A stretch of DNA of 40,367 nt from a virus: IMG/VR virus record IMGVR_UViG_3300045988_046182, positions 1 to 40,367 of that record; one strand, given 5' to 3'. Under the pieces are notes generated by a model. The model was given only the letters and a program-made list of their open reading frames with translations. It did no database searches and was not told the origin of the DNA. A program made the position numbers and the translations under genes. The stretch's first letter is position 1. The number at the start of each line of letters is the position of its first letter. Shown piece after piece: positions 23,412 to 27,034 of the stretch.

Positions 23412-23509
23412 CACTTTTATTAAAAAAATAATTATGGGGTGATAATGTGAAAATATTTTATTTCGTTATTCGCCTTGGAACATCTTTGAACCATTATAAG
23501 AAATAAAAA

Positions 23510-23850
23510 TTAATCACTTACTACATTTACTACAAAAACTACATCATTTTCTATATAGCACATTTTTATATAAAATATATATATTAATTTATTATTTATA
23601 ATAAAGTCTTATAATTTAATGTAGTAAATGTAGTAAATATATATAAAGTGTTGGTATCACTAGCTTACAAAGGGTTTTAAAAATGTAGTAATTATGTAGT
23701 AAAAAATGTAGTAAGCTTAAAAATGTAGTAAATATTTTAATTAATCATGAATTGATTGGTAACATTTTGTTTATAATTAAGTGTAGTAAATGTAGTAAAA
23801 CTACAAAAATGTAACTTAAAAATGTAGTAAATGTAGTAATAAAAAAAAGA
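23510..23850. repeat. Iteron array B, paralogue of array A: about 10 direct and 2-3 inverted AAAATGTAGTAA units plus an AT-only core
   Basis: 23531-23555 (inverted), 23618-23637, 23681-23733 and 23781-23845. Block identity to 7460-7850 is roughly 85%, except for one 15-bp segment that is inverted. Confidence 0.85.
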
Positions 23851-23882
23851 CACCTATTAAGTGCCTTTATAATGGTTTATTT

Positions 23883-24011
23883 ATATTGTTGTTTGTAGAG
23901 CATCATAGTATAATTCTTTAAATACCTAGCATACTCATAAGCTTCCTTTGTAGTCTTGCAAGTCTTTGTTTGTAATAATTCGTTAGCGATTTTATCAATA
24001 TTCTTCATAAA
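23883..24011 (-). CDS. Small protein (43 aa)
   Basis: GGAGG RBS. Confidence 0.25.
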
Positions 24012-24064
24012 AAATACCTCCTAAAGCTTTATATTTTATATATATGCTCTAAGAGGTAAAAAGA

Positions 24065-24592
24065 TTACTCTTTTTCTTCAATTTCTTTAACTTTATCATG
24101 AAGCATTTTATCAACTAACTTGATATAACTTGCATCATATCCAGTAAACTCAAAGTCTTGTAACCATCTGCGTATCTTTTCTATTTCTTTAGAAACTCCG
24201 CAAAGGGGTTTTAAGACTTTTTCAGATTCTTTAGGGAATTTAGCGACTAATCTATTAGATATAGAGGCTATAGTGGTATAAACTTCGATTTCCCAATCTA
24301 AATACAATTCTAAATGTTCCTTTATAGATAAAGGTTCTTTAACTCCTTCTAATTCCTCCCAAGACGGTTCAAGGTTTTCGCTGAACATATCAATTACATA
24401 GTGTTGTAAATCTACTCTATGACATCTATCCTCTTTAGATTGAACTTTATGCCATCTTTTAAACCCTTGTAATCCTTTCATGTGTGCTGACCTACTAAGG
24501 GTATCGTGAATCATTTCACCTCTAGCACTTAAATTTATAGCTTCTTTTAATAGTTTTATAGCTTCATTGTTAAAATCATAACTCTTAATCAT
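24065..24592 (-). CDS. Hypothetical alpha-helical protein (175 aa), cargo cluster
   Basis: ORF; 8-nt overlap with the upstream gene. Confidence 0.45.
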   Translation of the reverse strand: MIKSYDFNNEAIKLLKEAINLSARGEMIHDTLSRSAHMKGLQGFKRWHKVQSKEDRCHRVDLQHYVIDMFSENLEPSWEELEGVKEPLSIKEHLELYLDWEIEVYTTIASISNRLVAKFPKESEKVLKPLCGVSKEIEKIRRWLQDFEFTGYDASYIKLVDKMLHDKVKEIEEKE

Positions 24593-24983
24593 GTTTTATA
24601 TCCCTCAATTTCATCATAGTGTTGTTATACATCTTAGAATGAAGTATCTTCATATCTTCCATTAATTCATTTATAACAGTCATTATAGCCTTTGTACCAG
24701 CTTCTAAGCCATGTTTATTTATTATCTTAGAAACACATTCCATAAACTCAGAATCATCTCCTAATGGCTCGTAAACCATTTTAGCTGATGAATATTCCAT
24801 GGTTTTATCTTTTTCTAGCATAGATTCTATTTTTAAAGCATCTTTTATATTATCAAGTGCCATTGTCATAGCTTCAACACATTCACAATCCCATTTATCG
24901 GTTACCATAGCTTTTTCTATTTTAGGTAAAGCTTTGTCAATTATCTTTCCGTTAACTTCTATTATTTTGTTATAATCCATCAT
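24585..24983 (-). CDS. Hypothetical protein (132 aa), Met-rich, cargo cluster
   Basis: ORF; start and stop overlap with neighbouring genes. Confidence 0.45.
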   Translation of the reverse strand: MMDYNKIIEVNGKIIDKALPKIEKAMVTDKWDCECVEAMTMALDNIKDALKIESMLEKDKTMEYSSAKMVYEPLGDDSEFMECVSKIINKHGLEAGTKAIMTVINELMEDMKILHSKMYNNTMMKLRDIKHD

Positions 24984-25201
24984 TTACCCTCCTTTAGCAA
25001 TCTTATAATTTCATTATTTTGCTCTATAATGGTATTTAATTTTAAGTTAGTTTCTTGCTTTAATTCTTCCATAAGTTCATCATTAGAAGTTTGTTTTAGA
25101 TTCTCGGTGTAGTTTAATACACCTAAGAATCCACTAAACAAAGCTAAAGCGTCTAAATCTCTTAATTGATTATTCACTTTCAGAAACTCCTGTAGCCACA
25201 T
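24980..25201 (-). CDS. Hypothetical protein (73 aa), cargo cluster
   Basis: ORF. Confidence 0.35.
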   Translation of the reverse strand: MWLQEFLKVNNQLRDLDALALFSGFLGVLNYTENLKQTSNDELMEELKQETNLKLNTIIEQNNEIIRLLKEGK

Positions 25202-25529
25202 AAGAAGTAGGACAAACTGGACTTTCTACTAAGAAATGAGAAGTATCATTTCCATAAACTACTTTGTACTTTCTCCTACTTCTAATTTGGTCTGCTCTTA
25301 AAATATTACCTTTTCTACATAAAACCGGTATAGTTGCAGTTCCGTTCAAAATTACAACTGGCAACGTTCCAGCATTGCTAGGAATTGATTGACAAGTTAT
25401 TAAACAATATTCTTTCAAATTTGTTAATGTTGTTGTTGGAATAGTTATGGTTAAACTTTGGTTTGGTACAGTTCCGGTGACTGCTATACTTGTACTTTTT
25501 ATTATTCTATTACAATATTGACAACTCAT
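25170..25529 (-). CDS. Thr/Cys-containing hypothetical protein (119 aa), cargo cluster
   Basis: MSCQYCNR...TITIPTTTLTNL; AGGAGG RBS. Confidence 0.45.
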   Translation of the reverse strand: MSCQYCNRIIKSTSIAVTGTVPNQSLTITIPTTTLTNLKEYCLITCQSIPSNAGTLPVVILNGTATIPVLCRKGNILRADQIRSRRKYKVVYGNDTSHFLVESPVCPTSYVATGVSESE

Positions 25530-25611
25530 AAGTCGTCCTCCTTTATTTAAAATAAAAAGAGAGGTATGTTATACCCCTCTATAAAATCAACCTCTATATG
25601 AGGAATCTTAA

Positions 25612-26214
25612 TTAGCAAAGATTATAATTTTCTCCGCAACCATACGGTGTGAATGGAACACATTGAACAGGGTAAGGTCTTACTTGACTTACTATATTTG
25701 CAGTTTGTGCTGCTTGACTTAATCCAAGTTCCGCTGCTTGAAGTCTATCTCTCAAATCTTGTATAGTATTTTGAGTTAATAAGGCTCTTGTAGCTTCACC
25801 ATCAGCGTGGATAGCGTTAGTTATAGCACAAGTGTTCTTTTCAGCCTCATATCTGTTGATAAGTAGTTCTTTTTGCGTATTACAACAGCAACTAGCTATT
25901 TCTGAACTCAAATCTTTAAATTGTGCTAAGTTATTATATCCTAAGCTACATAAACCTTGTTGAAGAGTATTCATATTATAAGTGTTTTGGTCGCTTAATC
26001 TTCCTAGTTGGTTAGAAAGGTTAGAATAAAGGAAGTCATTGTTAATAGTGTTAAATCCTGCTCCATTACCTCCAAATCCTCCGAAACCATTTCCTCCCCA
26101 TGCTAAAAGGAAAAATAAGAAAATCCATGCTCCGCCACCGCCGAACATTCCATCATCATTTCTGTTATCTAGATTATATACTGGCGTAACGCCTAATCCT
26201 TCTGTCATAGCCAT
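25612..26214 (-). CDS. Gly-rich / Cys-rich protein with one hydrophobic segment (200 aa)
   Basis: GGGGAWIFLFFLLAWGGNGFGGFGGNGAGF, CCC, and C-terminal CVPFTPYGCGENYNLC; AAGGAGG RBS. Confidence 0.5.
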   Translation of the reverse strand: MAMTEGLGVTPVYNLDNRNDDGMFGGGGAWIFLFFLLAWGGNGFGGFGGNGAGFNTINNDFLYSNLSNQLGRLSDQNTYNMNTLQQGLCSLGYNNLAQFKDLSSEIASCCCNTQKELLINRYEAEKNTCAITNAIHADGEATRALLTQNTIQDLRDRLQAAELGLSQAAQTANIVSQVRPYPVQCVPFTPYGCGENYNLC

Positions 26215-26256
26215 ATTTGACTACCTCCTTAAATATATATATTTATATTAAAGTTC

Positions 26257-26484
26257 TTAGAACTTAATACCAAATTGTTGAGCCATTTGTCTGACTTGAT
26301 CTTCGCTCATTCCTTTTTGTTTAGCAATATTCATAATAGTTTCTTGAATTTGTTGAGGGTTTTTGCCTTCTAACATTTTCTTAGCTTGTCCCATCATAGG
26401 ATTATTACCAAACATATTCATTAGTTGTTGCGGATTCCCGCCTTGCATCATATTCATAAACATTTGCATCATATTATTATTCAT
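26257..26484 (-). CDS. Met/Gln/Asn-rich small protein (75 aa)
   Basis: MNNNMMQMFMNMMQGGNPQQLMNMFGNNPMMGQ; translationally coupled to the upstream gene. Confidence 0.45.
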   Translation of the reverse strand: MNNNMMQMFMNMMQGGNPQQLMNMFGNNPMMGQAKKMLEGKNPQQIQETIMNIAKQKGMSEDQVRQMAQQFGIKF

Positions 26485-26917
26485 TCTTATTACCTCCTAA
26501 TTGGTTTAATAAACTATCTAATACATTCTTGTAATTGTCTAAATCGCTTTTTAAGGCGTTGTATTCTTCTTTAGTGCAATAACCTTCGGTTTGTTTTTCT
26601 TCCTCTATAGAAAGCGTATAAGTGTCTATATGTGGCAAACCGTTCATATCTATATATTTAGTGTATAATTTCTTGTTTGTTGTATCTTCAAACCACAATT
26701 TGCTCCCATCAAAGTTCGGAGTTATTCCTCTAACTTCTTCTATAGATGTAACTGGTCTTATAGAAGGGAATTGAGGTTGCTGAACTTGTTGTATTGGTTG
26801 TGGTTGTTGTTGCTGATTAAATTGTTGTTCTAAAGCGTTTAATCTATTATTCGCAAAATTAGGATTGAAATTAGGATTCATTCCATAATTTCCATATCCA
26901 CTATAATAAGGATTCAT
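26477..26917 (-). CDS. Protein with Q/N/Y/G-rich prion-like N-terminal region and globular C-terminus (146 aa)
   Basis: MNPYYSGYGNYGMNPNFNPNF...QQFNQQQQPQPIQQVQQPQFP; AGGAGG RBS. The putative promoter is an extended -10 TGtTATAAC. Confidence 0.5.
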   Translation of the reverse strand: MNPYYSGYGNYGMNPNFNPNFANNRLNALEQQFNQQQQPQPIQQVQQPQFPSIRPVTSIEEVRGITPNFDGSKLWFEDTTNKKLYTKYIDMNGLPHIDTYTLSIEEEKQTEGYCTKEEYNALKSDLDNYKNVLDSLLNQLGGNKNE

Positions 26918-27011
26918 GTTATTACCTCCTGTTCTTTATACTTTAATTTTACATTAGGTTATAACAGTTCTTAAATAGAAATAAACGGTAAGTTCAAGGT
27001 AAATTAAACGT

Positions 27012-27034
27012 AAAAAAGCACCCTTTTGGGTGCT
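27012..27034 (-). terminator. Intrinsic terminator
   Basis: AGCACCCaaaaGGGTGCT followed by TTTTTT on the minus strand. Confidence 0.65.

Follow-up and report, generated by a model that had tools for sequence, protein, structure and literature searches.

We analysed a gene cluster on the minus strand of a 40,367-nucleotide stretch of viral DNA (IMG/VR record IMGVR_UViG_3300045988_046182, hereafter the window). This DNA is the near-complete 40-kb genome of a siphophage that infects Clostridium perfringens and belongs to the phiCP39-O/CPD1/vB_CpeS-17DYC group. The cluster is two joined parts, a five-gene accessory cassette of about 2.1 kb and a set of resident genes, and the cassette is a local copy of a five- to six-gene module that hundreds of gut viruses carry. 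This module is still unnamed, lacks family models for most of its parts and appears in no literature that we found. We tentatively read the module as an accessory fibre- or spike-type phage assembly, and there is a real chance that it is categorically new.

In a local alignment with phiCP39-O, positions 24857-27002 of the window (2,146 bp) have no counterpart, while both flanks are 97-98 % identical, and an identical breakpoint is found in five sister phages (phiCP39-O, 26F, 9O, 13O, and 34O). The missing interval comprises the leader/promoter region, the genes encoding proteins of 146, 75, 200, 119, and 73 amino acids (aa), and the first ~42 codons of a 132-aa gene. In the cassette-less phages the antirepressor gene stands directly before gp44 and gp45, which in phiCP39-O are the C-terminal 78 aa of the 132-aa protein and the ortholog of a 175-aa protein, respectively. 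The truncation of the 132-aa gene in these phages is most simply explained by a deletion in the phiCP39-O lineage. These phages form plaques without the cassette and infect the same species as the cassette carriers; from its exact absence we therefore regard the five genes as a dispensable cassette, and the 132-, 175-, and 43-aa genes as resident. A preliminary description of the same DNA had listed seven tightly coupled open reading frames (ORFs) resembling cargo, all of which are present on the minus strand, with overlaps of 8 nt (26477-26484), 4 nt (24980-24983), and 8 nt (24585-24592). The seven-gene cluster is a real unit, but a composite one that ends in an eighth gene of 43 aa, and its cargo-like discreteness is borne out by the first five genes, which make a clean presence/absence difference between sister phages. 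The cluster region is 95 % identical to that of 17DYC, in which every gene concerned is annotated as 'hypothetical'. Since these C. perfringens phages are cultivable, comparing 17DYC or CPD1 with phiCP39-O offers a ready experimental system.

Polymorphic presence among sister phages, the self-contained make-up of the unit and its location in a variable part of the phage genome would also suit cargo for defence or counter-defence. We consider this quite improbable, as PADLOC gave no notable match (the two weak ones being to a methylase model, over a stretch scoring 16.9 bits with E 7.5e-4, and to HEase, E 0.1), Pfam and NCBIfam revealed no enzyme, ATPase, nuclease or sensor domain in the core proteins, the parts look structural, and the viruses that share this module have hosts from three widely differing groups.

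The extent of the module became apparent from the family of the 200-aa protein (F0), whose profile confirmed at least 505 IMG/VR loci. This protein has 1795 homologs at E <= 1e-3, one cluster alone occurring on 995 contigs, and the best 120 of the 1795 contain no Pfam domain. We called ORFs in 91 loci, collapsed these to 20 lineages and clustered the neighbouring genes into families, and the resulting gene order is common to the 20 lineages. Slot 1 is occupied by the family of the 146-aa protein (F1; 88/91 loci), slot 2 by that of the 75-aa protein (F4; 86/91), slot 3 by F0 (91/91), slot 4 by either the family of the 119-aa protein (F6; 59/91) or an alternative partner (F5; 26/91), slot 5 by the family of the 73-aa ORF (F2; 27/91 loci and 12/20 lineages), and slot 6 by either the family of the 175-aa protein (F3; 38/91) or DUF7841 (F9; 46/91). 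The order F1-F4-F0 holds in 86/86 loci having all three genes. Either F5 or F6 is present in 85 loci and either F3 or F9 in 84, with zero co-occurrence within each pair, and all four combinations of the two choices are found. F3 is not related to DUF7841 according to hhalign, and DUF7841 (PF25223) had no Pfam match among the window proteins. In seven lineages (L054, L090, L089, L081, L088, L071, and L082) a 76-aa helix-turn-helix (HTH) protein of the sigma-70 region-4 type is encoded directly upstream of F1 (Sigma70_r4, E 4e-4; DUF1492, E 2e-3; both below Pfam cut-offs). It is usually preceded by a small coiled-coil/transmembrane protein, which in L013 (6592-7154) is weakly XhlA-like; neither this F7-type regulator nor its companion was found in the window. 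We also observed metagenomic proteins of an L005-type lineage that fuse module genes in frame, namely P0211 (F1 N-terminus and F6 C-terminus), P0176 (F0 N-terminus and F6 C-terminus), and P0158 (F6 and DUF7841), which look like natural internal deletions of the module or assembly artefacts.

The module is found at different positions in different genomes and moves between them as a whole. In abundant human-gut phages of ~65 kb it lies between the genes for endolysin and small membrane proteins and those for SNF2, DnaD, DnaB, and primase; other phages carry it 3' of the genes for a CBM5/12 protein and a C39-like/SLH protein, and on an 86-kb contig it stands ahead of the genes for a 1270-aa protein and for an endolysin of the Amidase_3 type. 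A Coprococcus comes prophage has it inside the head operon, where it is accompanied by its own HTH and an XhlA-like protein and is flanked by a 'Phage minor capsid protein 2' (E 6e-72) and a scaffold protein (E 8e-26). In L005, a strong terminator ends the module and is followed by a consensus promoter for replication genes, as in the window. L003 and L005 (1-2500), which represent the abundant ~65-kb human-gut lineage, also contain a diversity-generating retroelement, with RVT_1 beside an mtd-like tail protein, a few kb upstream of the module.

The crAss-like phage cr125_1 (L009, NC_055900) encodes a 299-aa 'spike protein/glycoprotein' that is a full-length F0 homolog, keeping the Gly-flanked hydrophobic segment, the CCC motif and the Cys-rich end described below. 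It adjoins a DUF7841 protein just past holin and LysB-like genes, with crAss structural genes nearby, and a search with this homolog retrieved many crAss-like phages, in which depositors had labelled the F0 homologs 'viral fiber' or 'spike'. In the cultured Bacteroides uniformis phage C3_41T2LP, the F0 match (E 3.7e-26) is followed by a beta-rich 180-aa protein, a 177-aa protein consisting of a small beta domain and a coiled coil, and DUF7841 (E 1.2e-10), and two viruses with Methanomassiliicoccales as their recorded host gave F0 matches with E about 1e-15. Judged from the genomes that carry it, the cassette is thus not tied to sporulating hosts, and since none of these crAss, Bacteroides, and Methanomassiliicoccales hosts forms endospores, a spore-specific function is disfavoured. 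The spread over viruses of Gram-positive, Gram-negative, and probably archaeal hosts therefore suggests a function connected with the particle or the gut environment rather than with the biology of one host. The literature yielded no paper on the module and no functional data on DUF7841, the cassette-bearing phages, C3_41T2LP or the crAss 'spike/fiber' annotation. Two further features of these genomes were observed. Several annotated genes of cr125_1, including the F0 homolog, have in-frame TAG codons, which is consistent with stop-codon reassignment. Moreover, charged, R/D/E/Y-rich low-complexity tails or small proteins, e.g., DYDRDYDRDYDRED, accompany the module in Bacteroidota and lemur-gut phages (L009 3864-4469, the C-terminus of cr125_1 gp032; L096 6798-7031; L010 6401-7144).

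The 200-aa core protein (25612..26214) consists of a conserved N-terminal peptide, a Gly-flanked hydrophobic segment (AWIFLFFLLAW), two long helices split by an invariant CCC, and a Pro/Cys-rich tail. Residues 22-54 are 42 % G and 21 % F, and the whole protein contains 8 Cys, including the CCC and those of the C-rich terminal tail. AlphaFold2 (AF2), run with 27 homologs, placed helices at 29-39, 56-94, and 120-178 with a predicted local distance difference test (pLDDT) score of 44.7 and no confident tertiary fold, and since no stable monomer fold is predicted, an obligate oligomer would be expected. The F0 alignment contains insertions of Cys-containing helical repeats, variable in length, between helix 1 and the invariant CCC. 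For the Gly-flanked hydrophobic segment we also considered a YjcZ-type sporulation peptide and a type IV pilin-like sequence; both were rejected, with no NCBIfam match and a misfit of the motif by inspection. The N-termini of F0 (window 26130-26214; 20 lineages) fall into two peptide classes, GVTPVYNLD-like and LSVADVAALQ-like. The former is mostly found with F6 and the latter mostly with F5, so that the class tracks the partner in 14/16 lineages (the exceptions being L082 and L088), and the Pro/Cys-rich C-terminal tail is alike in both classes.

The hydrophobic segment raises the question whether the 200-aa protein inserts into the cytoplasmic membrane and, with its partners, either blocks superinfecting DNA in the manner of a Sie- or Llp-like moron or aids the final stage of envelope disruption in the manner of a spanin. 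Hydrophobic helices are also found in F2 and in the upstream F8/XhlA-like proteins, the module has a moron-like autonomy (terminators, and in many lineages a small sigma-r4-type HTH of its own), it often stands just past endolysin/holin genes, and hosts of all three groups possess a cytoplasmic membrane; the succession of anchor, two Cys-containing helices and Pro/Cys tail also resembles the i-spanin Rz. However, the segment is only 11-14 residues long and borderline as a membrane span (Kyte-Doolittle value, KD19, about 1.5-1.6), with no positive-inside flanks. No lipobox or signal peptide is present on any partner, in line with the preliminary description (signal peptides on the cluster proteins were judged by eye only), and a head-type beta-sandwich or C1q partner lacking an export signal is hard to place beyond the membrane. 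Furthermore, the host is monoderm and has no outer membrane to fuse, the window cassette lies 4.6 kb away from the holin (holin and amidase at about 31.5-32.4 kb), and Pfam, PHROGs, NCBIfam, and PADLOC showed no homology to Sie, spanin or holin families. We therefore find a membrane-acting module rather unlikely.

The partner of the core protein in the window is the 119-aa protein (25170..25529; T 13.4 %, C 5 %), which is predicted to form a compact eight-stranded beta-sandwich with an invariant N-terminal Cys (pLDDT 88) and resembles fibre-head/distal-domain folds. When the fold was compared with the PDB, the tail fibre of phage Pa193 was the sole credible match, obtained by two methods and modest at about 9-12 % identity, and tail-fibre, receptor-binding, and collagen-fibre proteins were among the BFVD matches. 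A crAss-like protein combines DUF7841 with a 119-aa-like domain. In view of this confidently predicted beta-sandwich, we rejected the idea that the 119-aa protein is the precursor of a ribosomally synthesized and post-translationally modified peptide (RiPP) or bacteriocin. F5, the alternative occupant of the slot, is a BclA_C/C1q domain (PF18573 in 7/8 members, best E 1.6e-9), with 9H38 (F-BclA-CTD, the head of the tip fibrillum) as best PDB match (E 1.4e-5). F6 and F5 were dismissed as distant homologs (hhalign probability 0.09), and the window's 119-aa protein has no BclA_C match.

The occurrence of a BclA_C protein in the 119-aa slot of other lineages bears on the proposal of the preliminary description that the cluster is a spore-coat, exosporium, or sporulation-modifying module. 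The host does sporulate, Q-rich and Cys-rich compositions are present, and a ferritin-like protein such as the 175-aa protein recalls CotJC. Nevertheless, the proposal has to be abandoned as highly improbable. None of the eight cluster proteins matched GerQ or any other coat/exosporium family at E <= 1 in Pfam and NCBIfam; F6 is not detectably related to BclA_C, whose domain is a generic fibre head; collagen repeats and an exosporium leader are absent; the module also occurs in Bacteroidota phages and archaeal-virus genomes, i.e., in viruses of non-sporulating hosts; and sister phages without it infect the same species. An attractive link to spore biology is thereby removed.

The two proteins encoded ahead of the core are compositionally biased. 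The 146-aa protein (26477..26917) has a Q/N/P/Y-rich N-terminus, a small conserved central domain (consensus PVTSIEEvr..DGs..F.D...K.Y.K), and a C-terminal helix ending in LGG; its residues 1-55 are 21.8 % Q, 18.2 % N, and 14.5 % P (Q+N+P 55 %) against backgrounds of 3.4, 7.5, and 2.4, respectively, and it belongs to PHROG 21718 of unknown function, with no PDB or Pfam match. The 75-aa protein (26257..26484) combines a Met/Gln/Asn-rich N-terminal half with a conserved C-terminal helix pair (..KG.....Q....QFGIK), contains 20 % M (31 % in the first 35 residues; background 2.3) and 17 % Q, and has no significant family match in Pfam, PHROGs or NCBIfam. For the Bacteroidota and archaeal-virus versions, an F4 fusion at the N-terminal end of the core was considered, but the match was one of just 6 bits at the motif level. 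The low-complexity stretches quoted in the preliminary description are thus present, and the skew is large relative to the other proteins of the phage. For the eight proteins as a whole, Pfam and NCBIfam returned nothing significant and PHROGs only families of unknown function, and PDB sequence and profile searches gave nothing significant for the 200-, 119-, and 146-aa families and DUF7841. This agrees with one alternative named in the preliminary description, an undescribed structural system: the genes make up a probably structural set, for which Pfam, NCBIfam, PADLOC, and PDB sequence searches provided no family.

Three of the five proteins are strongly biased in composition, and their Q/N-, Met-, and Gly/Phe-rich segments might alternatively bring about phase separation or inclusions. 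The product would be a scaffold or condensate in the cytoplasm by which replication or assembly is organised. The absence of a confident fold for the core, as well as the additional R/D/E/Y-rich tails of partners in the Bacteroidota and lemur-gut phage versions, would fit such a role. However, the bias is confined to segments, and the same proteins also bear well-conserved ordered regions; the 119-aa partner is compact and folded, and the cassette is dispensable, which makes this explanation improbable.

Among the resident genes, the 175-aa gene (24065..24592; gp45 of phiCP39-O) encodes a four-helix-bundle protein that, on profile evidence, is ferritin-like and not HEPN. The top 22 PDB matches of its family profile were all ferritins, with marginal E-values of 0.002-0.085, and helices A-B (query 14-69 with ferritin 7-61) and C-D (query 114-186 with ferritin 88-160) align in register; the depositors of phiCP39-O independently noted that gp45 'contains ferritin domain'. 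Neither a HEPN nor a ferritin match was found for the family in Pfam. The preliminary description had pointed, with reservation, to RVDLQH as a HEPN-like motif, but this sequence sits in helix B, and R59 and H64 lie outside the invariant and near-invariant columns of a 13-sequence family alignment. The supposed HEPN protein is thus re-assigned to a ferritin-like fold.

The ferritin-only profile matches of the 175-aa family, the alignment, as we read it, of E54-D55-x-x-H58 in the window copy with the ferritin E-E-x-x-H among the ferroxidase ligands, and the invariant CCC of F0 could point to a metal/redox set in which ferritin-like and Cys-rich proteins bind iron or another metal. E101 and E136 of the 175-aa protein are invariant. 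However, the helix-A Glu is missing and ExxH is absent from one subfamily, so that this motif is not conserved family-wide. In half of the loci the ferritin-like gene is replaced by the unrelated DUF7841, and in phiCP39-O it persists without the cassette and is thus separable from the core. A metal-binding role of the set is in our view very improbable.

The remaining proteins of the unit are small. The 73-aa ORF (F2; 24980..25201) encodes a hydrophobic N-terminal helix and an amphipathic C-terminal helix. Translation most likely starts at GTG 25177, giving 65 aa; this codon has AGGAG nine nucleotides upstream and creates an 8-nt overlap, in accordance with the annotation of 17DYC, whereas ATG 25201 has no ribosome-binding site. 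The 132-aa protein (F11; 24585..24983) is Met-rich and helical, with phrog_17454 spanning residues 55-132, and its family is confined to lineages containing C. perfringens phages. The last gene of the unit, the 43-aa ORF (23877..24008), belongs to phrog_19908 (E 8e-33) and is common to phiCP39-O-type phages.

Taken together, the reading we favour, although we hold it with somewhat less than even confidence, is that the cassette encodes a dispensable, self-assembling structure, fibre- or spike-like, Cys-rich, and hydrophobically anchored, whose head can be exchanged and whose assembly partners are the Q/N/Met-rich proteins. The 200-aa core would provide a short N-terminal docking peptide, a hydrophobic anchor, a helical stalk of variable length with the CCC, and a Pro/Cys-rich tail, and the 119-aa beta-sandwich would serve as an exchangeable head or adaptor, replaced elsewhere by the C1q/BclA_C domain. 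The correlation between the N-terminal class of F0 and the type of partner hints at docking of the F0 peptide to the head protein. Terminal Cys residues, present in the core, the 119-aa family, and several F3/F5 members, might allow covalent cross-linking outside the reducing cell, and the 146- and 75-aa proteins may act as holdases or assembly partners that keep the hydrophobic Gly-rich segment of the core assembly-competent. Such an assembly could sit either on the virion or on the membrane of the infected cell. Breadth of hosts, cytoplasmic assembly without signal peptides, the head-operon site in one prophage, and the fibre-type folds point to the virion, whereas the hydrophobic segments, the moron-like autonomy, and the nearness to lysis genes point to the membrane.

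Several observations weigh against an anchored fibre- or spike-like assembly. We found no expression or proteomic data in the literature that place the components in the virion or the membrane. The helices of the 200-aa protein have a weak heptad periodicity and AF2 produced no confident model of it; its strongly hydrophobic segment would be unusual in a virion fibre, and is short and without positive flanks for a membrane span. A location on the cell surface would need some other export route, as no partner has a signal peptide, and the genes stand apart from the structural operon in the majority of lineages, that of the window among them. The correlation between N-terminal class and partner has two exceptions, and shared ancestry could yield the same pattern. 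Lastly, the putative chaperone role of the 146- and 75-aa proteins is read from their composition and synteny, and the model assigns no role to the ferritin-like and DUF7841 proteins.

A more far-reaching proposal, which we regard as unlikely, is that the cassette represents a new, horizontally mobile apparatus of gut tailed viruses with hosts across Bacillota, Bacteroidota, and methanogens, i.e., a Cys-cross-linkable fibre or coat with exchangeable heads that aids persistence, adhesion or transmission in the anaerobic gut. If so, it would be an apparatus built from families without described relatives, one that, for example, hardens particles or makes them stick upon meeting oxygen or mucus, and its use would lie with the virus and its surroundings, not with a process peculiar to one host.

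All genes of the window are carried by the minus strand. In transcriptional order, the genes for tail proteins, endolysin, and holin come first, followed by a series of small genes, the consensus promoter 28097-28069, the gene for an 83-aa protein, the Ant antirepressor gene (ANT E 7.7e-36, AntA E 2.5e-24), a terminator (27034-27017), the cluster, a second terminator (23868-23846), an iteron block, and a promoter (23411-23384) ahead of the recombination/replication genes. The flanking elements named in the preliminary description, terminator and iteron block, were thus both found. The upstream border is an intrinsic-terminator hairpin 3' of the Ant gene (27017..27034; 7-bp stem with 5 GC, T-run), and the sequence from 27003 upward is common to the window and phiCP39-O; the unit is closed by the terminator at 23846..23868, after which come the iteron block and the consensus promoter 23411-23384. 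As to the proposed promoter of the cluster itself, the extended -10 candidate TGtTATAAC is present (26958..26966), but it is weak, has no good -35 and was not returned by the consensus scan, which reported a single 9/12 site nearby (26974-26946). The cluster may also be transcribed by read-through from the consensus promoter 28097-28069. Between the 200- and 119-aa genes lies a terminator-like hairpin with a T-run (25558..25580), a possible attenuator, which is kept in 17DYC and L014; L015 has a different stem but still a hairpin and T-run, L054 has a GC-rich hairpin at the matching position, and L005 has no hairpin there.

Outside the cluster, the two promoters 28097-28069, which precedes the 83-aa and Ant genes, and 23411-23384, which has an extended -10 TG and precedes the recombination/replication genes, are both perfect 12/12 matches to the sigma-70 consensus on the minus strand, and they probably delimit early transcription units. 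The iteron block (about 23507-23848) is made up of TGTAGTAAA units running in either orientation, among them perfect inverted copies of 17 nt. A paralogous block is present at 7457-7797, and each window block matches the phiCP39-O counterpart of the other block at about 79-80 %; to have two origin-like repeat arrays in each genome seems to be typical of the family. No nucleotide match to phiCP39-O was obtained for window positions 5490-6531 and 2742-4190, while adjoining genes are 92-98 % identical. These unmatched stretches include a 333-aa gene (5467-6468) and part of an 815-aa gene, and the structural genes are therefore also mosaic between sister phages.

None of the nearest analogues of the module is a homolog of its core protein. 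The module resembles morons and accessory fibres such as lambda stf/tfa, HK97 gp15, and T5 Llp in being terminator-bounded, dispensable in the laboratory, and found at varied genome positions, but it shares no sequence or fold kinship with them, comprises five or six genes and crosses the phylum boundaries of hosts. The two-component spanins Rz/Rz1 have an N-terminal anchor, two helices, covalent Cys chemistry, and a Pro-rich C-terminus in common with the core, and the module also lies near lysis genes in several lineages, whereas the module has a monoderm host in the window, no lipoprotein partner, no homology to spanins and, in the window, a cassette outside the lysis cassette. The 175-aa family aligns with bacterial and archaeal ferritins (Ftn) over all four helices, but with marginal E-values, no Pfam match, and only partly kept ferroxidase ligands. 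Among phage fibres, the predicted 119-aa fold bears a modest likeness to distal domains of tail-fibre and receptor-binding proteins, exemplified by gp47 of Pseudomonas phage Pa193 (PDB 9b45); however, the 119-aa protein is stand-alone and encoded outside the tail genes. No PDB chain of the A-ENA helical-hairpin fibre type was matched by the F0 profile, so that this fibre is an analogy only, while the Cys connectors of S- and L-ENA are reminiscent of the terminal Cys on small subunits of the module. In architecture, the module recalls two-part fibres bearing separately anchored C1q/TNF heads (BclA with ExsF/BxpB; the L-BclA/F-BclA tip fibrillae of endospore appendages), since the partner of the core is a stand-alone BclA_C/C1q protein in 26/91 loci. 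Exosporium leader peptides dock into ExsF trimers (PMC12357932), and the short N-terminal peptide of F0 similarly tracks the type of head. In contrast to BclA-type fibres, the module has no collagen repeats or exosporium leader, combines a helical stalk with a hydrophobic segment, occurs in viruses of non-sporulating hosts too, and in the window pairs its core with a 119-aa partner that is not BclA_C.

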